Assembly: GCA_963710605.1 (NCBI GenBank)
Contig: CAVQBA010000001.1
Span: 128,001 to 192,000, forward strand
DNA: 64,000 bases
Source of the DNA: an uncultured cyanobacterium
GTDB taxonomy: Bacteria > Cyanobacteriota > Cyanobacteriia > Cyanobacteriales > Cyanobacteriaceae
Direction: 5' to 3'
This document shows, piece after piece, positions 40,115 through 53,109 of this stretch (positions are counted from its first letter, which is position 1; every line of letters begins with the position of its first letter). The notes beneath the pieces were generated by a model. That model was not told where the DNA came from, searched no databases, and saw nothing but the letters and a program-made list of their open reading frames with translations. Made by a program: the position numbers and the translations under genes.

Positions 40115-40306
40115 GTGATGAAAAAAACACTTCCCATCGTGATGGTGAAATTAATGTCTGATGGTAATTGGCATTCAACAGATGAGTTAGTAGAAAAAAT
40201 TAGTCATCGTTTTTCGGCAACTAAACATATTTTGAAAAAACAAGGTTATCGATTTGAATCTCGTCGAATTGAAGGGAATAAATGTGAGTATCGTTTAGTA
40301 GTTTAA
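40115..40306 (+). CDS. Small putative winged-helix protein
   Basis: LMSDGNWHSTDEL...RFSA...LKKQGY; AAGGAG RBS. Confidence 0.6.
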   Translation: MMKKTLPIVMVKLMSDGNWHSTDELVEKISHRFSATKHILKKQGYRFESRRIEGNKCEYRLVV

Positions 40307-40350
40307 ATTTTTAAAATTAAGCCAAAATCTTAGTAAAGGAGGAAAAAATT

Positions 40351-40641
40351 ATGAATCTTGAATTACTTAAACAAAAACGAGCAGAAATTATTAATATTGC
40401 CAAAAAGCATGGTGCGTATAATATACGAGTATTTGGTTCGGTTGCCAGAGGCGAAGCCGATGAAAAAAGCGACATTGATTTTCTGATTGATTATGACATC
40501 GATAAAATTACCCCTTGGTTTCCTGTGGGGTTAATTCATGACTTGCAGGATTTCTTAGGTGAAAAAGTCGATGTTGTTACAGCCGATGGTTTAAAAGAAA
40601 GAATCAAACCAAGAGTTTTACAGGAGGCGATTACATTATGA
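40351..40641 (+). CDS. Minimal nucleotidyltransferase (MNT antitoxin family), no HEPN partner
   Basis: VFGSVARGE...SDIDFL...VDVV. Confidence 0.88.
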   Translation: MNLELLKQKRAEIINIAKKHGAYNIRVFGSVARGEADEKSDIDFLIDYDIDKITPWFPVGLIHDLQDFLGEKVDVVTADGLKERIKPRVLQEAITL

Positions 40642-43600
40642 CTAAACCAGACATTCAAAATATATTAAACGAATATATAGAGATTGTGATTCCAGCAATG
40701 TATGAGCAAAAATACCATCTAATATTAGCAAAAGGTGGTATTGATTATCCTTATCTGTGTGAGCAATCACATTTGAAACATAGTTTAAATGGTATTTTCG
40801 GTTTAATTGAAATACTTAAATTTATTCAATTAGAGAATCTTTTTGTTTATGGATTAAATGAGTCAATCATTCGTAAGGCTTTAGCATTGATTACTATTCA
40901 TGATGAGCACAAATTTAAAGATTATGAAAAAATTGGAAATTCAGAATTTGCAATTCCTTTAGAAAGACTTGAAAAAAAATATAAAACACTTAATTTAATT
41001 GATTTTGCAGGTGGATTGAATCCTCACATAATACGACATGGTAATGTCAGCAAAAGAAGTTCACATCACGGAGATTTATTATCTTCTGATGAAGAGCATG
41101 GAAGTTTACTGTGGTTATTAGTAAGAGTTGGAGATACTATTGCATCTGTTACCAGTGCTTCTGAAGCTGTAGTTTCATTAAGAAATTATTTAAGTGACTT
41201 AATTCCTGATTTTGCTAAAAAATATCAACTTTATTATCACGATTTGGGTGATATTCGGGGAGTTTTAACTAATTTAATTCATAGTACAGTAACTCAATAT
41301 TTAAGAAAACAATTTGGGTTTCAAGATATTGTTTATTTTGCAACAGGAACTCTTTATATAGGTAAAAAAGAAATTAATAATTTTGTAAGGAAATATTTTA
41401 TTGATAATCTTGTTAAAAATATTATTGATAATTTACAACCTTCAACAGAAATGGCTAAATCTGTTGCTAAAGATGGTGTAAGAGAAAAAAATTACGATTT
41501 TCAAGATTATATTTACAAATTATCTACTATCGAACTTTTACTAGAAATAATTTTAGAAACAACACAGACTATAAACAAACCTGATGGGAAAACTATAAAT
41601 AAAGATGTTCAAGCTATTGCTAAGAAAAAAACTACTCCTAATGGATGGTTAGATTCTTTTGAAGATAAATATAATGTATCATTAAATGAATCTGAAGATT
41701 TTCATAAAAGATGGTTTTTAGTAAGACGTTATTTATTATATGTTGACAATCTTTTAAAAGTACTTGTACCTGATTTAGATCAAGTTAGTTGGTTTTGTGA
41801 ATTATTTGAAATTTATCCTAATATAAAATTTAATATACAGGAAGAAAAACAATTATTTGCTAGTGGTGGTTTAGGTAAATATGTAATTATTTATGGTTAT
41901 CATTTTTTAAACGGCGTTGATTTTAAAAATAGATCAGCAGAATCTTGTGATTTTCCTAGAGTAATAGAATTACTTAATCAACGTATTGCTAATGCTGTTA
42001 GTAAAATTGATGATCGGGCTGGAAAAAACAAAATCATAGAAAAATTAGGTTTTAGAGAAGAACTAGGGAATTATTTGCAAGAAAATTTACTTTTATCTTT
42101 TTCCTCTAAAGTAAATTTAAGTGATGATTCATTTTCTGATTATGCTATCACTAAGAAAAAAGGACATTCAAATCAATTATGTTCTATTTGTAATCGAAAT
42201 AGTAAATATACCCAACCATTAAGAACAGGTATTTTAGGCGATTCAGGACAAAGTTTTTCCAATCGAGTTTTACCAGCTAAAAAAGTTCCTAATAATTTAC
42301 GTCCTTGGTGTCCAATTTGTCACTTAGAGTTTATTTTACGAAAAATCACAGGTTTGTCTTTACCTAAAGGTGCAGATTACAACAAATCTCGTCGCATCCA
42401 TCTTTATGTTTTGCCAACATTCTCTTTTACAGCAGAATCTATCAAGTTAATTGGCAGAGTATTAAAACCATTACAGGAAATTTCAGCCTTGCCCATCAGA
42501 GATTTTGGAGAAGAATCCCCGGATTACCTAATTTTTGGCTTAAAAATAGAAGTCTTGATCCTGAATGGATTGAGACGGTTATTGATGTATTTAATCGTGA
42601 AGCCCAAAGAATTGCTGAAAAACCTAATTATGTAGGAGAAAGATTACTTGCAACTCAAAATAATTTTAATCAAGAAGATGAAAATAATAAAGATGAAAAC
42701 AAAGCAAAACCACAACCTCATTATTATTTAATTCCTTGGGAGCGTTCAGTTTATGAAAGCGATAAAGATGATGCTAACATTCCCACTCGCACTGAAGCAT
42801 GGGCTAAGGCAACTTTTGCTGGTGTGATCATTTCTAGCTTAACCAGTAGTCGGGTTTATGTGACAGAACAACCATATTTATTTGTTGCCAATGCTTCTGA
42901 GTTAAAAGCCACTGTCACTCTTGATTCTCCACCACCGATTATTACTAAATTATTAGGTAGTGAACAAGACTCAAAACTTTGTAATCGTCCTGATACTATT
43001 AGTCTTTATGGAATGGAAAAGGGTTATAAAAGTGGCTTAGAGAGGGCATTAGATTTGTGTTCAGCTTTGTGGATGATTACCAGTAGTGTCCATCGTTCTA
43101 ACTCTCAAACTAAGGATAAACAGATAGCTCAAAGATTAGGCGACTTGCTAGTTAATCCCTTAGCCGGAGCTCATTTTTATAAAGAGTATGGGCGTTTAAA
43201 TGAGGATAAATCCCCATTTCTTTTACTTACTCAAGCTTGTGCAATTCTTTTAGAATATTTTGGAGGTGACTTAATGAATTTAGTGACAAAAAATTGCCGA
43301 GAAATCGTTACAAATTCGTCTTCCTTTTCGTGAATATGGAAGGGGAAAAGCTCATAATTATGAGTTAGTTTTACGAGAATCTGTTGATGCTATTCGAGGG
43401 GCTTTTCGGTTAATTTCTGAATTACGTCAAACAGCATTAACGGGTCAAATTCCTCCTGATGAAGCAATTACAGAGTTGAAAATCAAGCATCGGGAACGCT
43501 TCTAAAGGTATGGAAACACCGAAAAGCTACTAAACGAGGTGATGGTGTCATTAATCCTGAAGGCAAAGATTTAGGCGATTTAGTCGGAGAATTTATTGAT

Positions 43601-43790
43601 TTGATGATTGATGAAGTCTTTTTAGACCGTTGCGATCGAATCGTTTGCTCAATTCTTAAAACTAGAAAATAATCTTGCTGATGGTATTTATTATTACACC
43701 AATCGAAATGTTAATCAAAAATGGGAGGAATATAACGAGCTTAAAGCTAAAAACAAAGCTAAAAAAGATTCTGATAACCCCAATGATTAA
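40638..43790 (+). CDS. cas10d: Type I-D large subunit Cas10d (Csc3), several frameshifts in the 3' part
   Basis: N-terminal HD nuclease (EQSHLKH...IHDEHK), RGVLTNLIH, CSIC and CPIC, FSNR; fragments continue to TAA at 43790. Confidence 0.8.
43274..43790 (+). CDS. Putative Cas11d from an internal start in cas10d
   Basis: GGAGG at 43262-43266 followed by in-frame ATG at 43274 (FGGDL-MNLV). Confidence 0.6.
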
Positions 43791-43870
43791 GATACAAGCA
43801 AGATGCTTGTTTTACAAAACAATCTCAAAACTTGATTTAACTAATATTTATTCTTTAAGGAGAAACAACA

Positions 43871-44954
43871 ATGACTAGCAATAATAATCAATTTTCTACA
43901 CTTCAAAAATATGCTAAATATTTTGTATCTGAACCACCAAAAACACCTATGGGTAAATATGCAAGTATTCTTGTCTTACGAGAAACTAAATCCTACGCTA
44001 TTTTCACAACTGAAGGAGGTCAACAACAAGATATAGAAAGAACAAAAGCAGGTTTAAATAACTCGAATCCTGTAGATCGTTTAGTTATGTTTAAACGTAA
44101 ACAAGTTGCACCCGAAAGACGTACAGGAAAAGCATTGATGCGTCAATATAGTGTTTTTCCTTATGGCTTAGTCAAAAAAGAAAATAAATTTCAGAGTGTG
44201 GCTTATGGTGAAAATGCGATTGCAGAAGCAGAAGCTAAAAAGAAAGATAAAGTTAATATTAAATCTTATTCTGACTGCTATTTGACCGCAGGATTATGTG
44301 GACATTGCACTGATTGTATGACTTATGGTTATGCGGCGATCGAAGGTGAAGGTTCGCGCTCAAGTCGCATTATCACAGATTCATGTTTTACAGTGCGTCC
44401 TTATGCCTTAATTCAAAAAGGTTTGAAGTTTAATGTAATTGATGAAAAAACCCAAACTTCAGGGACAATAACTGAATATGATTATACTCAACCCGAAGTC
44501 TTTTTACCCTCAGTCGTTACTACCGTTGATTTAACCTTAGAAGAATTTGTTTATACTCTGATTAATCTTCTACGCACAACACGTTACGGGAAAGAAGCTT
44601 CACGTCAAGGTTTTATGCGGAATCACATTTTAGGAATTGCTTTTTCTGATGTGGAATTATTCTCAAATCTTGAATTTAGTCAAGCTTTTTATGATGTTTT
44701 TAAAGATGATGAAAATATTGATTTAATGAAGGGCTTTTTATCTTTACAACATTTTTCAGAATCATAAAAAGCAAATTATTCAAACATTAACAAGTAAGTT
44801 AAATGGACGGTTAAATATTATTAATAATTCTGAAGAATTAGAAGCTATTTTAGCTGAAATTCGGACATTAAACCAAGATGAAACTGCTTTAACAGAATTT
44901 TTACAAAATCTCAACACTCAATCTGCACGTTTTTCTATTGAACTTAATAATTAA
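43871..44954 (+). CDS. cas7: Type I-D Cas7 (Csc2), frameshift near 44760
   Basis: LVLRETKSYAIFTTEG, FKRKQVAPERRTG, CGHCTDCMTYGYA, TTRYG. Confidence 0.88.
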
Positions 44955-44956
44955 TT

Positions 44957-45767
44957 ATGGAAATTTATCGAGCCAAATTAGAGGTTTTGGATTACCTGTT
45001 TTATGCAACAACCGAGATTGGAAAAGTTTATGAAACAGGTGCATTTATTCATAATTACGCCTTATGTTATGGCTTAAAATTAGTAAATGCTCCTTATTCT
45101 CGTCAAATCCAAAAACCTACTTATGAACAAGACTTAAAGCCTTTAAAGGAATTAGGAATTTATATAACACCTGCTTATCCTTTGCAAATATCCTATCGTT
45201 TAATTCAATGGAATACCATTCAAGAAAGATATGGTTTTCACAGGGAAAGAGAAGAATATTGGTTATCCAGATTGGGGCTTTGCTCGTGTTATTACTCCTG
45301 AAAGTTTGTTTGAATTTTATATTTTAATTGCTGATATTCAAACACTAAAACATTATCCTCAACTAGAGCAATTAATAACAGAAAAAACTGGTTATATTCG
45401 ACTAGGTAAATTTTTAGCAAAATCAAGTTTGGCTTTAACAAAAGCTCAAGAAATAACCACAAAAAAAGGTTTATTTGTAGCAGGTATTACAGATGATAGA
45501 GGAAGATTACCATCAGAAAAAGGTCAATCATCTCTATTATTAAACTGGCGAGATATAACTCTTGATCCTTTTACTTGTGATATTTATCCTGCAACTTTAC
45601 CAACTCGTTTAATAGCTAATCCTAAATATGAAAATGCTAATTTTTATCATATTAATTTTGGAGATAAAGATGAAATTAAACTACCACAAAATATGAGTTT
45701 TGTTGCTCGTCCACTAACTAGCAATAACAAGAAAAATAAAACTGCTAAAAAGACAGAAAATGATTAA
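44957..45767 (+). CDS. cas5: Type I-D Cas5 (Csc1), frameshift near 45235
   Basis: LFYATTEIGKVYET...IHNYALCY, YITPA, YIRLGKF. Confidence 0.85.
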
Positions 45768-47877
45768 TTTAAACATTTCTCCTGTTACTTTAAATCAAGT
45801 TAATACTGATCAATGGCTAACAGGAAAAAAACCTCATGAATATCAATGGAAAGCTTATCAATTAATTCAAGAAGCTTTTAAACAAAAAAAAACATTATGT
45901 TTATTCTTAATAACTCCTACCGGAAGTGGTAAAACTTTAGCTTCTTATGCTCATAGTATCAAAACAGGTTTACCCGTGATTGGAGCTTATCCTACCAATG
46001 AATTACTAGCAGACCAAGAGAGGGCTTTATCTGATGAATATAAACAAACAGGTACGAATATAATAGAACGAATAGATAGCGAAACTCTAGATAGATTACA
46101 AATAGAATATGAGTTAAATCGTCATAGTCAAACTTTAGAGAAAATTCTGAATCAAAGACCAGTAATTTTAACCAACCCAGATATATTATTTTATGTGATT
46201 TTTGGATTATATCCAGCTATTTATAGTTTAAGGGAAAGATTATGGTCATTAGTTGGTAGTTATAAACTATTTGTTTATGATGAATTTCATTTATATAATG
46301 TTAAACAACAAGCAGATACAGCCTTTTTTATTGGTGCTTTAAATACGATTAAATCTGATACTCCTAGAGTGTTTATTTTTGCTTCAGCTACACCTAATTT
46401 AGAAATAGTTAACTTATTAAAAAATAAACTTAATTTATGGGTAGAAACCGTTGCTTCAACACCATCAAATCAAGACTCAGCTTATACTATTGCTCATCCT
46501 GTTAATTTAACATTAATTCCTTCTAATTTGGACAAATGGCAAGGATTAAAAACTTTAGATGAATCTTTTGATATTATTACATCTTTCAATCAAAAATATT
46601 CTGATTCTCGTTATGTTGGAATTTTTGATTCTGTTGCAGGTGCTATTGGTGCAGCTAAAAGTTTTAAAAATTTTTTTGAATTTGCTCAAGTAGGAGAAAT
46701 ACATGGTTTAAGTTCAAAAAAAATGAGGGAAGAATCACTAGCAAAAAAAGTAACTATTGGCACATCAACTATAGAAGTAGGTGTTGATTTTAAAGGAAAA
46801 TATGAAAAAGATTTTTTAATCTTAGAAGCAAGGACAAGTAGTCAATTTATTCAACGATTTGGACGTATTGCTAGACATAATAAATCATTAAATATTCCCA
46901 ATCAAGTTTTAGCACTTGTACCTGATTATGTTTCTAACTATTTTGAGGAAAAACTTACATCTGAGTCAAATATTACTCGTCAAGAATTAACTAATTTAAT
47001 CGAAGAAGCCTACCGTGATTTAGAAAACTTTGAACGTTATTTGAGTAAACATGCTTTAGTTGAGATGATTGAAGCAAGTAATTTAGTAATGAGACTATTT
47101 CAGGCAGATGTTAAACCTAGAATTAAAGATGGGTTAGCTAATGTAATAAAAAAACTAACAGGCAAAAGTTATGAACAAGCACAGGCTAGAAGAAAAGAAT
47201 ATAAAAATGAAAAAATATTAAATCCATTATTAACATTTAGGGGAAGTGGTTTAGAAGTAGCAATTATCGATAAACGAGGTGACGATGTAGGGTTTCCTAT
47301 AAAAAGATATAATCTAATGTTTATTTTAAGACGAGGTATTTTTGACGAAATTAGTCAAGATACTTTTGTTAAAAAGTTAGAAAAAATAGAACAACAGGAT
47401 TCTCAATATAATTATGAAATTCATCGTGAAAAAAGATTTTCTGAACTTACTAAGCCTTCATCTGAAGAATTGCTTGGAGTCTATGGATTTTTTCGTTTGA
47501 AAGGATTAATTGATGATGGTGATAAAACTAGACGAGTTTGGTTTGAAATCAATCAAGAAGATATTGAAGGAAAGTCTGGAAAAGTTACTGTTTTAGAAAG
47601 ATTATCTATTCAAACTGAACCTAAAACTTTTATCAGATTACTTCAAAAAGTGTTTCGCAAAAAACAGATAGTTGCTTGGGTAATCGATAAACATCCACAT
47701 AGTATTAAATTTGGTCGTTCATTACCTCCTTTATTTGCTATTTATGAATTGCAAGTAATACTTGTAGGTGGTGGTCATAGTAAACAATCATGGAGTATTG
47801 CTTTTAACCAAGATGCTTTCTTTTTGGATAGTCTGTATTGGAATCTAAACAAGTCTAATGATTTTATGTGCTGTTAA
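45760..47877 (+). CDS. cas3: Type I-D Cas3' helicase (no HD domain)
   Basis: PTGSGKT, YPTNEL, LTNPDI, DEFH, SATP, GTSTIEVGVDF, QRFGR. Confidence 0.9.
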   Translation: MINLNISPVTLNQVNTDQWLTGKKPHEYQWKAYQLIQEAFKQKKTLCLFLITPTGSGKTLASYAHSIKTGLPVIGAYPTNELLADQERALSDEYKQTGTNIIERIDSETLDRLQIEYELNRHSQTLEKILNQRPVILTNPDILFYVIFGLYPAIYSLRERLWSLVGSYKLFVYDEFHLYNVKQQADTAFFIGALNTIKSDTPRVFIFASATPNLEIVNLLKNKLNLWVETVASTPSNQDSAYTIAHPVNLTLIPSNLDKWQGLKTLDESFDIITSFNQKYSDSRYVGIFDSVAGAIGAAKSFKNFFEFAQVGEIHGLSSKKMREESLAKKVTIGTSTIEVGVDFKGKYEKDFLILEARTSSQFIQRFGRIARHNKSLNIPNQVLALVPDYVSNYFEEKLTSESNITRQELTNLIEEAYRDLENFERYLSKHALVEMIEASNLVMRLFQADVKPRIKDGLANVIKKLTGKSYEQAQARRKEYKNEKILNPLLTFRGSGLEVAIIDKRGDDVGFPIKRYNLMFILRRGIFDEISQDTFVKKLEKIEQQDSQYNYEIHREKRFSELTKPSSEELLGVYGFFRLKGLIDDGDKTRRVWFEINQEDIEGKSGKVTVLERLSIQTEPKTFIRLLQKVFRKKQIVAWVIDKHPHSIKFGRSLPPLFAIYELQVILVGGGHSKQSWSIAFNQDAFFLDSLYWNLNKSNDFMCC

Positions 47878-47978
47878 TTAATATGCCTCCTGTTAGTTTA
47901 ATTCGTAATGTGACCATGGAAGGAAAATATTACCAAGACTTTAATCTTCCTGTCAACATCAATTATCGCTTTCACTAA
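47877..47978 (+). pseudogene. 3' remnant of a second cas5d/csc1
   Basis: INMPPVSLIRNVTMEGKYYQDFNLPVNINYRFH* resembles the C-terminus of canonical cyanobacterial Csc1. Confidence 0.65.
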
Positions 47979-48076
47979 TTCTTTTTGACGACAATCCTAA
48001 TCTCCCTACACCACACAATATTGATAATTATCAGTCTGCGAATGATATTCAACCCCTACGACAATACATTAAAAAT

Positions 48077-48895
48077 ATGCCTTACAGTCTCGTCATTAAC
48101 TTTACCAATACCACCGATATTCCTCGTGGTTATACCTCAGGAAAACACTTACACGCTCTATTCCTAACTCTTGTAAATTCGATCGATAATCAGTTAGCAG
48201 AATACTTACATCGATCGTCATCTAACAAAGATTTTACCATTAGTCCCTTACAAGTAGTAAATCATCAAAATCAAAATCAAATTACTTGGCAAAAACAAAA
48301 AAAAGATATCAAAAAAGGTTCAAACTGTTGGTGGCGAATTACCCTCTTAGACGATCGTTTATTTGGTTTATTAACTCCTTTATGGCTTAGTATTAATCCT
48401 CAAAAACCGTTTCATTTAGGAAGTGGCGAATTACAAATAACTAGTATTTTATCTAGTAATAATAGTCACCCTTGGGCTAATGCTTGTACTTATCAAGATA
48501 TTAATGAAAATGCTTCGCAAACTAATAGAAATCTTCAGTTTAAAATATACACACCAATGGCTTTTCGTCAAGGTAAATACGATATATCTTTACCAACTGC
48601 CGATTTAGTTTTTTCTAGCATATTAAGGCGTTGGAATAATTACAGTAATCTTCCTTTTGATAATGTCGATTTTAGCTCTATCTTTCCTGCTTATTTCGAT
48701 TTAAAAACCGAAGTTGTGATTAACGATAAGAATAAATTTATTGGTTGTGTAGGAGATATTAATTACAAGATTTTAGGTGAGATAGATTCGTCTTTAATTA
48801 AGACAATAAATATTCTTGCTGACTATGTTTTTTACTGTGGAATTGGCAGAAAAACCACTATGGGGATGGGCATAACTACAAGAGTTAAAAGTTAA
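48077..48895 (+). CDS. cas6: CRISPR endoribonuclease Cas6
   Basis: MPYSLV, GKHLHALFL, WWRITLLDD, GIGRKTTMGMG. Confidence 0.95.
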   Translation: MPYSLVINFTNTTDIPRGYTSGKHLHALFLTLVNSIDNQLAEYLHRSSSNKDFTISPLQVVNHQNQNQITWQKQKKDIKKGSNCWWRITLLDDRLFGLLTPLWLSINPQKPFHLGSGELQITSILSSNNSHPWANACTYQDINENASQTNRNLQFKIYTPMAFRQGKYDISLPTADLVFSSILRRWNNYSNLPFDNVDFSSIFPAYFDLKTEVVINDKNKFIGCVGDINYKILGEIDSSLIKTINILADYVFYCGIGRKTTMGMGITTRVKS

Positions 48896-48914
48896 GAGTT
48901 AAGAGTTAAAAGTT
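48880..48914 (+). repeat. Heptamer array (AARAGTT)5, left of the four-helix-bundle gene
   Basis: Contains the cas6 stop and abuts ATG 48915. Confidence 0.9.
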
Positions 48915-49262
48915 ATGAAACGAAGTATTGTTTATGAAAAGGCTTATAAATTTTCTATTCGAGTTATTAAAGCCTATAAATATTTGACAAAAGAAAAAAA
49001 AGAATTTGTTTTGTCCAAACAATTATTACGCTGTGGTACTTCAATTGGTGCAAATATTGCTGAAGCAAATGGGGCTATTTCTCAAGCTGATTTTAAAAAT
49101 AAAATGTCGATCGCTTACAAAGAATCTTTAGAAACAATATATTGGTTATCCCTATTAAAAGACACAGAATATATTGAAGAAAAATCGTATCAAAGTATCA
49201 ATAAAGAGGTAGTCGAAATCAGCAAAATGTTATGTTCGATTGTCAAAAATACCAATTCTTAA
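48915..49262 (+). CDS. Four helix bundle protein (23S rRNA IVP-like family)
   Basis: KAYKFSIRVI, LSKQLLRCGTSIGANIAEA, AYKESLETIYWL. Confidence 0.9.
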   Translation: MKRSIVYEKAYKFSIRVIKAYKYLTKEKKEFVLSKQLLRCGTSIGANIAEANGAISQADFKNKMSIAYKESLETIYWLSLLKDTEYIEEKSYQSINKEVVEISKMLCSIVKNTNS

Positions 49263-49299
49263 CTCTTAACTCTTAACTTTTAACTCTTAACTTTCAACT
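49254..49299 (+). repeat. Heptamer array (AACTYTT)~6, inverted relative to 48880-48914
   Basis: Contains the four-helix gene stop and abuts the cas4 ATG at 49300. Confidence 0.9.
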
Positions 49300-49926
49300 A
49301 TGGACTATATTCCTATCGCATCTTTAAACCATTACAGCTATTGCCCTCACCGATTTTGGCGGATGTTTTGTGCTTCTGAATTTACAGACAATCAGTACAC
49401 CATAGATGGCACTACATTACACGATCGAGTTCATACCGTGGGGGACTTAAATAGAGAGGAAACTTGGCAGATTCGAGCAATATGGCTTAAATACGAGCGT
49501 TATCAACTTATTGGTAAAGCAGACTTAATTGAAGTGGAAAATGGTGAATTCATCCCGATTGAATACAAAAGAGGACGGAAAAACCAATGGACAAACGATG
49601 CCCTACAAGTTGCCGCTCAAGCCTTATGTTTGGAAGAAATGACCGACACAAGTATCGATATTGGTTATGTTTATTACGCTCAAACACACCAACGGCAAGA
49701 GGTAAAAATAGATCGACAATTAAGAGATTTGACAGTAGAAACGATCGATCGAATCAAAAATATTATGAATAACAACATCATACCACCAGCCCAATACGAC
49801 AAACGTTGCAAGGGTTGTAGTCTTTATTCTGCTTGTCTGCCGAGGGCGAGTAAAAAAATCGAATCGTTATCAAGAAGCAAATTAAACAAAAAAGTGTTTT
49901 TTCAAAAGAAATACTGTAGGGGTTGA
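49300..49926 (+). CDS. cas4: Cas4 (true end probably near 49885, frameshifted tail)
   Basis: YSYCPHR, GKADLIE, PIEYKRG, QALCLEEM, RCKGCSL-C. Confidence 0.92.
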   Translation: MDYIPIASLNHYSYCPHRFWRMFCASEFTDNQYTIDGTTLHDRVHTVGDLNREETWQIRAIWLKYERYQLIGKADLIEVENGEFIPIEYKRGRKNQWTNDALQVAAQALCLEEMTDTSIDIGYVYYAQTHQRQEVKIDRQLRDLTVETIDRIKNIMNNNIIPPAQYDKRCKGCSLYSACLPRASKKIESLSRSKLNKKVFFQKKYCRG

Positions 49927-49942
49927 ACATTGTTCAACCCTA
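49916..49942. repeat. REP-like palindrome GTAGGGGTTGAA-N-TTCAACCCTA
   Basis: Related copies at 58911-58936 and a half copy near 48046-48059. Confidence 0.6.
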
Positions 49943-49999
49943 AACCCTTATTCAACCCTAAACCAAGAAAACAAAATATTTAACTTTAAGAGGATAAAC

Positions 50000-51014
50000 A
50001 TGGGAACAATTTACGTAACACACGAAGACGCATTTATCGGCAAAATAGATGAAAGAATACAAGTCAAAGCGGATAAAGAAAAAATATTAGACGTACCGCT
50101 AATTAAAACAGACGGCTTGGTAGTTTTAGGAAGAGCGACTATTTCTCCAGCTTTAATCAGTGAAGTTTTAGAAAGAAAAATACCCGTATCTTATTTAACC
50201 AAAACAGGAAAATATCGAGGACGACTAGAACCAGAATTAACCAAAAATATTTTTATCAGAAAAGCACAATGGTTAGCAGTAATGAATGAAGATAATACAC
50301 AAGTTATTCATGTTGTTCGGGCATTTATTCGGGGAAAACTAAAAAATTATCGTAACTTAATTAATCTTAGAAATAGACAGTCGAATAATCATCATTTAAC
50401 AAAAAGTATTACTAAAATAGAATCAATTATAAACTCTTTAGCTACCGCAGATAATGTTAATTCTTTAAGAGGATTAGAAGGTGCGGGAAGTGCGATTTAT
50501 TTTAGTTGTTTTAACCAGCTAATTAAAAACGATCGATTTAGTTTTAATACCCGCAATCGTCGTCCGCCAAAAGATCCCGTTAACTCGTTATTAAGTTTTA
50601 CTTATGCTTTACTCAGACACGATATTCAAAGTGCGGTAAATATTGTCGGGGTTCGATCCTTATTTGGGTTATCTTCATGTTCCTCATTATGGCAGACCAG
50701 CACTAGCTTTGGATTTGATGGAAGAATTTAGACCTTTAGTTGCTGATGCGGTAGTTTTAAATGCGATTAATAATCAAAAAATAACTCCTGAAGATTTTGT
50801 CAGCGAGCCTTTAAGTGAAGCAGTTTCTTTGACGAAAGATGGACTAAAAATATTTTTGCGTTTGTATGAAGAAAAAAAACAATCCAAGTTTAAACATCCT
50901 GTACTGAAAAGACAAGTTACTTATCAAGAATCTTTTGAAATTCAAGCACGATTTTTAGGTAAATATTTAATGGCAGAAACTCAGCAGTATCCACCTTTAA
51001 TTATTAAAAAATAA
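50000..51014 (+). CDS. cas1: Type I-D Cas1, frameshift near 50650; no RT fusion
   Basis: LRGLEGAGSA-YF, RNRRPPKDPVNSLLS, GFDPYLGYLH, ALDLMEEFRP. Confidence 0.93.
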
Positions 51015-51088
51015 AAAGCATAACGATCGATTTTTCGTTCGATACTGAGTAAAAAAAAGGAATAACCTATCAACTATCAATTAATTAA

Positions 51089-51361
51089 ATGTATGTAGTT
51101 ATCAGTTACGATATATCTGAAAATAAAAGAAGAACTAAAATACACAAAATTCTCAAGTCTTATGGAGAATGGGTACAATATAGTATATTCGAGTGTGAGC
51201 TAAGCCAAACTCAATACGCTAAATTACGCGATCGTCTAAGTAAAATAATCGATAACGAAACTGATAATATTCGTTTTTATTTTATGTGTCAATCCTGTCA
51301 AAAGAAAATCGAACGTATTGGCGGAGAATTACCTCGTGATAATACTGTCTTTTTTGCTTAA
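51089..51361 (+). CDS. cas2: Cas2
   Basis: VVISYDI, YGEWVQYSIFEC, DNIRFY. Confidence 0.95.
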   Translation: MYVVISYDISENKRRTKIHKILKSYGEWVQYSIFECELSQTQYAKLRDRLSKIIDNETDNIRFYFMCQSCQKKIERIGGELPRDNTVFFA

Positions 51362-51538
51362 TTGGCGTAAGGGGTAGGGTGTAAAAATGAGGATTTGAGA
51401 AAAACCAGTTCAAATCTTTATTCTGTAAGAGTTTTAGCAATCGAGATATTCAACAGCCTTACGCCCTTTACACAGTAAAATTTTCAGCGTTTTGACTACC
51501 TTTTTCTTCTAGCTATAAGTTATAATATGAGTACCCTT

Positions 51539-52368
51539 GTGCGACCTGAAAAGTTGCAAGAGAAAAGTCGAATTAAAACTCGCCAACGAGTCATCCGTTG
51601 TGTTATCACCCGAAGGGGCTACATGAGCAATTGTATAGTTTCACAGCTAGAGGGTAATGTCAAGGAAGAATATAGTTAGCAATTACTCCAATTGGCTAGA
51701 TAAAGATGATTATGAAGTCGAATATGTTGATTGAAGCCTCCTAATCATAAGTCACTTGAAATGCTAAATGATACGAGTGATACGAAGATTAGTTCCTTAA
51801 CTATTTATTTAAGGAAAAAAAAGTCATAAGATTAAGGGTTTTTTATGATGATGAACGACATATCTTCGGGGGTATAGACATCTTCTAAAATCATCGCATC
51901 TTAACTCTTGTAAAACAGGATAACTCCCATATGTTCCTATTAGGTAAGGAGAGAGCAATCTCAAATGATGGCATAGGGGAATTAGGATATTAAAGAAGCG
52001 AAGGCTCTCAAATCGCAAGATAACAGGAAAGACTTAACAGTTATAACTGGAGAGATAGGGAAATACCCAATCCGAAAGGATGCTGACTTTAAATGGTATT
52101 TACTAGTTTAGTAGAATCGGAGAAAATAATTAAACCATTATGGAAAAGATAGATGAGTCTAACAACTCAATCGTAACTAATGGGACTTTAACGTGGAACG
52201 ACATTAATTGGCGTAAAACCACAAACAAAGTTCAAGGATTGATGTACCGCATTTACCGAACAACTAAGAGAAAAAATCTTAGAGTAAGTGCTTGAGCTGA
52301 ATGCTTGGAAACTTGCACGTTCAATTCTTAGGGGAGAAAGGGGGAGAAATCCTTCTGCCTTACCCGAC
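51539..52368 (+). mobile_element. Group II intron, 830 nt, RT ORF internally deleted, inserted in the CRISPR leader
   Basis: 5' GTGCG; domain V at 52294-52327 (AGC triad, GAAA loop, AC bulge); domain VI with bulged A ending ACCCGAC; EBS1 AAGGGT (51834-51839) pairs with IBS1 ACCCTT (51533-51538). Confidence 0.92.
52140..52295 (+). pseudogene. Truncated intron-encoded RT (51 aa, N-terminal segment only)
   Basis: MEKIDESNNSIVTNGTLTWNDINWRKTTNKVQGLMYRIYRTTKRKNLRVSA*; WxxInW-K...V..L..RI motif; stop overlaps the start of domain V. Confidence 0.8.
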
Positions 52369-52419
52369 ACGCAATCGAACCTTGAAATTCAAATATATCA
52401 ATGCTTTCAATCGTGAGCA

Positions 52420-53109
52420 GTTGAAATCGACTATAATCCCTATGAGGGATTGAAACTGGGCATAATCTTTTCTTTGATTAAAGGAATTGGGTTGAAATCG
52501 ACTATAATCCCTATGAGGGATTGAAACCTGTTTTCAGCCCTGACATATAAAATCTTAAAATGTTGAAATCGACTATAATCCCTATGAGGGATTGAAACTT
52601 TGTCTCCTTACAAGATAAGCGGAAGCTGAAAAGTTGAAATCGACTATAATCCCTATGAGGGATTGAAACGCTGTCGCAGAATCACAAAGCATATCTAAGA
52701 GATGTTGTTGAAATCGACTATAATCCCTATGAGGGATTGAAACTTAAAACTCCTCCATAGGTAAGCCAAAGCATCATATATGTTGAAATCGACTATAATC
52801 CCTATGAGGGATTGAAACATGTCAATGACGAGAACAGACGAATTTATAAATATCGTTGAAATCGACTATAATCCCTATGAGGGATTGAAACTTTTGTCAA
52901 GTTTGCTCATGAGTTTAATTTCATCAGTTGAAATCGACTATAATCCCTATGAGGGATTGAAACAATTATATAAACAATCGCACGAGAAAACCAATTAAAA
53001 GTTGAAATCGACTATAATCCCTATGAGGGATTGAAACTTTGACATATACTCCATTTACCGATAAAAGTGAACGTTGAAATCGACTATAATCCCTACGAGG
53101 GATTGAAAC
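52420..53109 (+). CRISPR. Type I-D CRISPR array: 10 repeats of 37 bp, 9 spacers of 34-38 bp
   Basis: Repeat GTTGAAATCGACTATAATCCCTATGAGGGATTGAAAC at 52420, 52491, 52562, 52633, 52707, 52782, 52855, 52927, 53001, 53073; last copy has one T>C change, consistent with + orientation. Confidence 0.98.

Follow-up and report, generated by a model that had tools for sequence, protein, structure and literature searches.

An ORF-less group II intron in a type I-D CRISPR leader, probably of a IIB lineage that inserts just after promoter -10 boxes

The stretch analyzed here, called the window throughout, comprises 64,000 nucleotides (nt) of contig CAVQBA010000001.1 from an uncultured cyanobacterium (assembly GCA_963710605.1). 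[quoted passage not shown] The insertion into the type I-D leader is a precise one, with the -10 box of the promoter on one side and the conserved part next to the repeats on the other; without the intron, this leader measures 228 bp (177 + 51). Relatives of the intron follow -10-type hexamers of unrelated genes, and do so at a constant distance of 12-13 nt. Judging from these sequence comparisons, we put at roughly 75% the probability that the element is an ORF-less, chloroplast-like group IIB intron of a lineage that inserts just after promoter -10 boxes, the CRISPR leader promoter being one of its targets. An earlier, sequence-only reading of the window had already delimited the intron, and its coordinates all hold, including those of the 1058-bp gap and the 228-bp intron-less leader.

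The Rfam model RF00029, which describes domains V and VI, matches positions 52292-52368 over its full length (model positions 1-77 of 77) with 48.4 bits (E 2e-6), its gathering score being 40 bits; no model of domains D1-D4 matched on the intron in the Rfam scan, carried up to E 10. The element begins with GTGCG at 51539 and ends with AC at 52368. As is expected of a group II intron, domain V is 34 nt long with an AGC triad and a 2-nt bulge, and domain VI has an unpaired A (A52362) 7 nt from the 3' end of the intron. The sequence-only reading had called a group II intron and had proposed an Rfam covariance scan as a check; that scan, the relatives and an empty leader all agree with the call.

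The boundaries of the intron are confirmed as exact by array 2 of the same genome (minus strand, G000:C1:75580-76123; 8 copies of the window array's repeat), which lies outside the window. Once 51539-52368 is excised, about 228 bp of the window leader align with the leader of array 2, uninterrupted across the junction; TATAAT keeps its place, and of the six bases 5' of the junction one is mismatched. In a same-genus genome (L062), the identical six bases are followed directly by the conserved leader. Neither cas2 nor cas1 nor the RND gene of array 2 was present within 3 kb of L062, which is therefore called a homologous leader and not an allele. The sequence-only reading had suggested looking for intron-free alleles: both array 2 and L062 are indeed empty across the junction, and what L062 provides is an intron-free homologue. 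The second array itself lies directly after an RND-type transporter gene, and cas genes are absent within 3 kb of it (G000:C1:75580-76350).

Of 401 genomes of the same order searched at the DNA level, 47 gave matches, mostly to domains V-VI only. Long matches, at 67-70% identity over intron nt 1-640/673, came from genomes G267 and G161, and partial ones from G239 and G109. Domains D1-D3 of the window intron are 67-70% identical to those of three introns that score 60.8-63.9 bits on RF00029, namely L043 (796 nt, no ORF), L044 (2600 nt, with a frameshifted reverse transcriptase (RT)) and L045 (2573 nt, with an intact RT of 628 amino acids and an HNH-type C-terminus); an RT ORF is found in two of these, and full-length relatives measure about 2.6 kb. 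The closest solved structure to the L045 RT is the T.el4h RT (6ME0_C, PDB 6ME0; E 1e-108). According to the available text of Monachello et al. (2021, PMC8643678), T.el4h (Th.e.I3) and EcI5 are IIB1 introns with chloroplast-like class 1 RTs. The earlier assignment of the intron as IIB and chloroplast-like is thus probable by way of this relative, the window itself holding only a 51-codon remnant of the RT ORF. By blastn, window intron nt 577-728 align with L045 nt 573-726 and nt 742-830 with L045 nt 2485-2573, so that about 1.76 kb are missing compared to L045, with the deletion junction within 52267-52279. Together with the RVT_N remnant at 52140-52295, this bears out the earlier description of the intron as RT-deleted. 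The ORF deletion of L043 is independent, since L043 diverges earlier in the ORF.

Admission to the site set of the family required an identifiable 5' end and, in addition, at least 65 bits on the domain V-VI profile, or at least 40 bits on the 5' profile, or the 20-nt 5' pattern with continuing family sequence. Fifteen distinct sites qualified: the window, L043, L044, L045, L088, L089, L090, L091, L092, L094, L096, L138, L114, L162 and L154. The search with the L045 RT found 3 close relatives among 10 loci, and the order-wide search with the 5' pattern added L162 and L154. A pattern scan of metagenomes returned 42 stretches, five of them in the family (L138, L114, L111, L129 and L139); L111 was left out of the site set for want of flank, and L129 and L139 as duplicate sites of L089 and L088. 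The other 37 metagenome stretches, with less than 20 bits or 0 on the 5' profile, were dropped. Among the order-wide 5' pattern matches, L156 and L158 are not introns and L155 proved to be a CRISPR spacer. The class-wide domain V pattern matched only in G000 and G035 of the 401 genomes, and within the family the domain V pattern matched in 6 of 20 genomes.

At 12 of the 15 distinct sites a TATAAT-like hexamer (at least 5 of 6 bases) ends 12 or 13 nt upstream of the intron, at 12 nt in seven cases and at 13 nt in five, and in seven of the twelve the hexamer is a perfect TATAAT. Every other offset from 0 to 30 was found at 0-2 sites. When the same test was applied at all positions in 1 Mb of the window's genome it succeeded at 2.8%, and at positions with equally AT-rich flanks at 4.8%. 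More distant introns had the hexamer in 0 of 6 cases (L099, L100, L101-L103 and L106); L106 is located inside a coding sequence. Where sequence downstream of a relative is available (ten cases), an ORF on the same strand starts 7-59 nt past the intron in seven. L044 lies 47 nt 5' of an rpoC1-like gene, L045 lies 46 nt 5' of an M50 protease gene, and L043 lies 27 nt 5' of a pentapeptide-repeat gene. Since the hexamer stands at 12-13 nt in 12 of 15 sites and gene starts follow 7-59 nt downstream, the lineage appears to insert at about +6 of transcripts. The sequence-only reading had noted that the window intron lies in sense orientation, 12 nt after a TATAAT, and the box is indeed conserved in array 2 and in homologous leaders; what it overlooked is that a TATAAT at this distance is the recurrent target feature of the family. 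The sequence ACCCTT that precedes the intron occurs at 1184 sites in the window's genome, with TATAAT at the matching spacing before only four of them, one being the occupied leader. Two other accounts of the association were rejected. The box does not travel with the intron, as empty leaders already carry TATAAT, and the sole candidate for a conserved intron segment pairing with the hexamer (near intron nt 170) is, by eye, not conserved.

The six exon bases before the intron form six Watson-Crick pairs with the loop of an intron hairpin, as the sequence-only reading had proposed for the first exon-binding site (EBS1) and its intron-binding site (IBS1). The loop sequence AAGGGT is the sole perfect 6-nt Watson-Crick complement of ACCCTT within intron nt 150-480, and perfect EBS1 matches are found in 7 of 13 cognate intron/exon pairs as compared to 12 of 156 non-cognate ones (Fisher P 8e-5). 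EBS1-IBS1 pairing is supported by family covariation. The second pairing put forward earlier, EBS2-IBS2, fared less well: it exists, with two G.U pairs, and is no better than chance, since the ATTTAT loop region also pairs with 6 of 12 non-cognate exons. No cognate-exon-specific covariation signal for EBS2 emerged from the three candidate regions tested. The position of the ATTTAT loop does fit the EBS2 location by T.el4h numbering (nt 258-268) given in the available text of PMC8643678, and another candidate, TCATA, can form five Watson-Crick pairs with exon positions -13 to -9. Within domain V, C52297 faces A52324, so that the partner of the C of the AGC triad is mispaired, and the window alone shows this mispair among 13 aligned family sequences; the tandem U.U pairs of domain V flagged by Rfam are common to all 13. 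When six sequences of the family are aligned, 119 of the 134 consensus pairs persist in the window, 37 via changes on both sides.

Several observations weigh against a -10-directed lineage that includes the window intron. Three of the 15 sites match the hexamer at fewer than 5 of 6 positions (L089 and L154 at 4/6, L043 at 3/6), and the sample of the family is a small one. The choice of offsets 12 and 13 was made post hoc, which weakens the binomial P (8e-17 against the 2.8% null, 7e-14 against the 4.8% null) by at most one or two orders of magnitude. An identical intron is found at 12 nt in L091 and at 13 nt in L092, a register shift that fits poorly with rigid base-by-base reading by a protein. 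The IBS1-matching loop of L044, L045, L094 and L096 is at nt 263-272, opposite the window's other hairpin in the alignment. The 15 broken pairs of the window, as opposed to 1-3 in L043, L044, L045 and L138 in the six-sequence alignment, may in part be alignment error, the window being the outlier of that alignment. Finally, a simple -35/-10 scan found no -35 element at 16-18 nt from the window TATAAT, and for this reason omitted that box.

The leader into which the intron is inserted is of a type widespread in the order. Taken with the repeat, the 51 bp beside the array are 75-82% identical to homologous leaders in those genomes of the order that match best. In the best-matching loci, 29 places from 28 other genomes (L059-L087), an order-wide conserved 50-nt segment lies between promoter and repeat 1, and this segment starts exactly at the insertion point of the window intron. 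These 29 leaders and that of array 2, 30 in all, are uninterrupted. A -10-like hexamer ends 9-12 nt before the equivalent of the junction in 28 of 30 leader rows, window included, with 12 nt being the commonest distance. The combined -35/-10 score reaches at least 9/12 in 18 of 30 leader rows, the scan having chosen another hexamer for the window. The region has what a leader should have, a promoter and a conserved segment abutting repeat 1, with the start site predicted: because the -10 box ends 12 nt upstream, transcription is expected to start a few nt 5' of the intron, which would leave about 4-7 nt of 5' exon in the RNA. No terminator-like site was found within the intron.

We propose that a ribonucleoprotein (RNP) of this lineage would insert at promoters by reverse splicing, on the sense strand and about 6 nt past the start of transcription, guided by EBS1-IBS1 pairing and by recognition of the -10 hexamer at -18/-19 to -13/-14. 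A leader promoter with ACCCTT at the right distance would be one such target. The protein encoded by related IIB1 introns reads the distal part of the 5' exon and aids target melting, with the EcI5 protein requiring C-18, C-17, A-15 and A-14 and with A-15 critical for T.el4h, as described in the available text of PMC8643678 and PMC2882425. In the present lineage the hexamer spans -18 to -13 or -19 to -14, and the A-15 read by EcI5 and T.el4h is present in both the 12- and the 13-nt register. The simplest reading would be that the protein of the lineage favours a -10-like hexamer. Alternatively, the melted non-template strand of open promoter complexes may be the real target, an alternative favoured by the occurrence of the same intron at 12 and 13 nt in L091 and L092 and by the sigma-like pattern of conservation. 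Within the hexamer, positions 1, 2 and 6 vary least among the family sites, and this is the pattern of sigma-70 -10 elements. We give somewhat less than even odds to a tentative model of a promoter-homing IIB lineage. Its RNP would insert by reverse splicing about 6 nt past the start, recognizing either the -10 element itself or, in RNA polymerase complexes that are open or have begun to transcribe, the melted non-template strand. If the model is true, every copy becomes the 5' end of a transcript, and the window intron constitutes the first 830 nt of the precursor of the CRISPR RNAs (pre-crRNA). The intron would be transcribed as the 5' part of the pre-crRNA, and, as Cas6 cuts in the repeats, production of the CRISPR RNAs (crRNAs) would need no splicing; for this reason the insertion is probably tolerated.

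Among other explanations, the one that survives best, unlikely as it is, holds that the insertion disables the array: 830 structured nt separate the promoter from the repeats, upstream leader signals are displaced, and the locus decays. The splitting of cas10d, csc1 and cas1 into ORF pieces, described below, would suit a decaying locus, but these splits may be indel errors of the assembly; moreover, the intron has no terminator, and the conserved 51 bp beside repeat 1 are intact.

A little less likely again is a one-off ectopic retrotransposition without promoter targeting, in which copies near -10 boxes survive as harmless, expressed ones. Most group II introns of bacteria lie in intergenic DNA (available text of PMC8919778 and PMC2882425), and the flanks of the present family are AT-rich, where -10-like hexamers are common. 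Survival alone, however, leaves the fixed distance of 12-13 nt unexplained, the null rate in AT-rich DNA is only 4.8%, and the hexamer stands at the matching spacing at only 4 of the 1184 genomic ACCCTT sites.

We regard it as very improbable that the CRISPR locus has co-opted the intron, whether as a structured 5' leader that regulates or stabilizes the pre-crRNA or as a means of RT recruitment. Most of the secondary structure is kept and the intron contains no terminator-like site, as co-option might lead one to expect, but the insertion is seen in one genome only, a same-genus genome and the paralogous array being without it, domain V carries its mispair, and no RT gene is adjacent. Least credible is the view of the sequence-only reading that the family homes specifically to CRISPR leaders, which is not supported: homologues at unrelated sites, the outcome that it had itself named beforehand as speaking against leader targeting, are what the tabulation of insertion sites shows. 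For all that the window intron has a perfect IBS1 match and lies in the most conserved stretch of a leader type widespread in the order, none of the 14 other family sites is in a CRISPR locus, these being before unrelated genes or intergenic, CRISPR-like arrays occur among the 57 loci examined only at L001 and L011, the window's own, and none of the 30 other leaders carries the intron, including the same-genome leader with a single IBS1 mismatch.

The -10-directed lineage may be compared with group II introns of known behavior. The ORF-less TeI3-type introns of Thermosynechococcus elongatus (Mohr et al. 2010, PMC2882425) are, in the available text of that account, likewise cyanobacterial IIB introns that have lost about 1.5-1.8 kb of RT ORF and kept the ribozyme; like the window intron they are mostly outside genes and need protein in trans. 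In contrast to the window intron, for which none was found, TeI3 introns have related RT-encoding partners in the same genome. The available text of the TeI3 account gives no promoter-proximal rule and no CRISPR leader site, the word "promoter" there referring to assay constructs only. For EcI5 and T.el4h, the available text of PMC8643678 describes a target read by EBS1, EBS2 and EBS3 together with protein contacts at about -18 to -14. Their proteins read a few scattered bases, whereas the present lineage has a whole -10-type hexamer in either of two registers. Group IIC introns, which insert after terminator hairpins or attC, provide another case of lineage-wide targeting of a transcription signal that leaves the host unharmed. 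These introns, however, are without EBS2, and the signal that they use is a DNA stem-loop where the transcription unit ends (PMC8643678, available text), while the present lineage is IIB and is found at the start.

The known ways in which group II introns avoid harm are insertion after terminators (IIC), insertion inside other mobile elements, and the use of spliceable sites. If the proposal is true, a IIB lineage at a fixed distance after -10 boxes would represent a new target niche, one that guarantees transcription, and a transcription-start counterpart of the terminator-using IIC introns; it would also offer a simple, testable rule for the way in which target melting is assisted by the protein or by the open promoter complex. 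To CRISPR biology, the window presents a retroelement lodged between the promoter and the integration-proximal leader, a natural experiment on the parts of a leader that expression and spacer uptake require. In a literature search whose scope excluded most subscription journals and supplements, we found no report of a group II intron in a CRISPR leader or of insertion after -10 boxes. Terminators were examined in a genome-wide survey of 2022, the main text of which, as available, does not contain the word "promoter" (PMC8919778); supplementary insertion-site tables may bear on the novelty of insertion after -10 boxes.

Present activity of the window intron is doubtful. No second copy of the lineage was found in the window's genome by blastn (word size 7), nhmmer or the family 5' profile; the full-length RTs of the other introns of the genome are only 36-40% identical to the family RT, and no cognate RT was found in the assembly. 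Given this lack of a cognate RT and the domain V mispair, the window copy is probably unable to move, and its splicing may be poor or absent. ORF-less introns of T. elongatus are mobilized by related proteins (PMC2882425, available text). The window's genome has 12 RF00029 matches in total. The eleven further ones are on contigs C2, C4, C5 and C6 of G000, several of them clustered on C5 at 11-30 kb, and they are accompanied by full-length RT genes of other lineages.

The assignment of the array to type I-D in the sequence-only reading is borne out by Pfam and NCBIfam matches of the cas genes (Table 1). NCBIfam matches in the operon are TIGR03174, TIGR03157, TIGR03158, TIGR04093 and TIGR01573; of the models that bear on type I-D, TIGR03174, TIGR03157 and TIGR03158 score above their cut-offs, and Csc1 scores below its cut-off, on an ORF fragment. 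Three genes, cas10d (40115-42635), csc1 (44957-45767) and cas1 (50000-51014), are each broken into at least two overlapping ORF pieces, and the frame change in cas1, near 50646-50669, lies beside short G and T runs. The assembly has 7 contigs and a marker completeness of only 84.9%, and the split genes may be either real pseudogenes or indel errors.

Table 1. Features of the CRISPR locus and its intron in the window
Feature	Position	Strand	Basis
Type I-D cas operon	40638..51361	+	Pfam and NCBIfam matches
cas10d/csc3	40638-42635	+	Pfam/NCBIfam
csc2	43871-44767	+	Pfam/NCBIfam
csc1 piece	45231-45767	+	Pfam/NCBIfam
cas3'	45760-47877	+	Pfam/NCBIfam
cas6	48077-48895	+	Pfam/NCBIfam
cas4	49300-49926	+	Pfam/NCBIfam
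cas1 (Cas1d), two frames	50000-50731 and 50643-51014	+	Pfam/NCBIfam
cas2	51089-51361	+	Pfam/NCBIfam
Upstream CRISPR leader (5' exon), 177 bp	51362..51538	+	Aligns with array 2 leader
TATAAT -10 box of leader promoter, ends 12 nt 5' of intron	51521..51526	+	Conserved in array 2 and homologous leaders
IBS1 ACCCTT, last six exon bases	51533..51538	+	Six Watson-Crick pairs with 51834-51839
ORF-less group II intron, probably IIB, 830 nt	51539..52368	+	RF00029, 5' and 3' ends, relatives, empty leader
Earlier EBS2 candidate, loop ATTTAT, non-specific	51803..51808	+	Pairs with 51527-51532, 2 G.U
EBS1 hairpin, loop EBS1 AAGGGT at 51834-51839	51823..51849	+	RNAfold of intron nt 161-380; complementarity scan
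Alternative EBS2 candidate TCATA	51824..51828	+	Five Watson-Crick pairs with exon -13 to -9
RT ORF remnant, 51 codons	52140..52295	+	Pfam RVT_N, E 5e-5, below cut-off; blastn against L045
Domain V, 34 nt	52294..52327	+	Rfam alignment
Domain VI, unpaired A at 52362	52331..52365	+	Rfam alignment
Repeat-proximal leader (3' exon), 51 bp	52369..52419	+	Order-wide conservation
CRISPR array, 10 repeats of 37 nt	52420..53109	+	RF01318, 10 matches

Some loci met in the searches have features of their own. The spacer L155 (G113:C10, about 1487-1521) belongs to an array of the window's repeat family and holds a group II intron 5' end, with one mismatch to the 20-nt 5' pattern of the family, plus 14 nt of upstream exon; it looks as if it had been acquired from intron-bearing DNA. 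L088 and L089 (G035:C1) are near-identical RT-bearing copies that have 16 nt of 3' flank in common and a poor IBS1 match, and the alignment shows them without the sequence that runs from the end of domain I to the end of domain III. The more distant introns L099 and L100, of the same broad group, are twintrons, located within the YADD-coding stretch of the RT gene of another group II intron.
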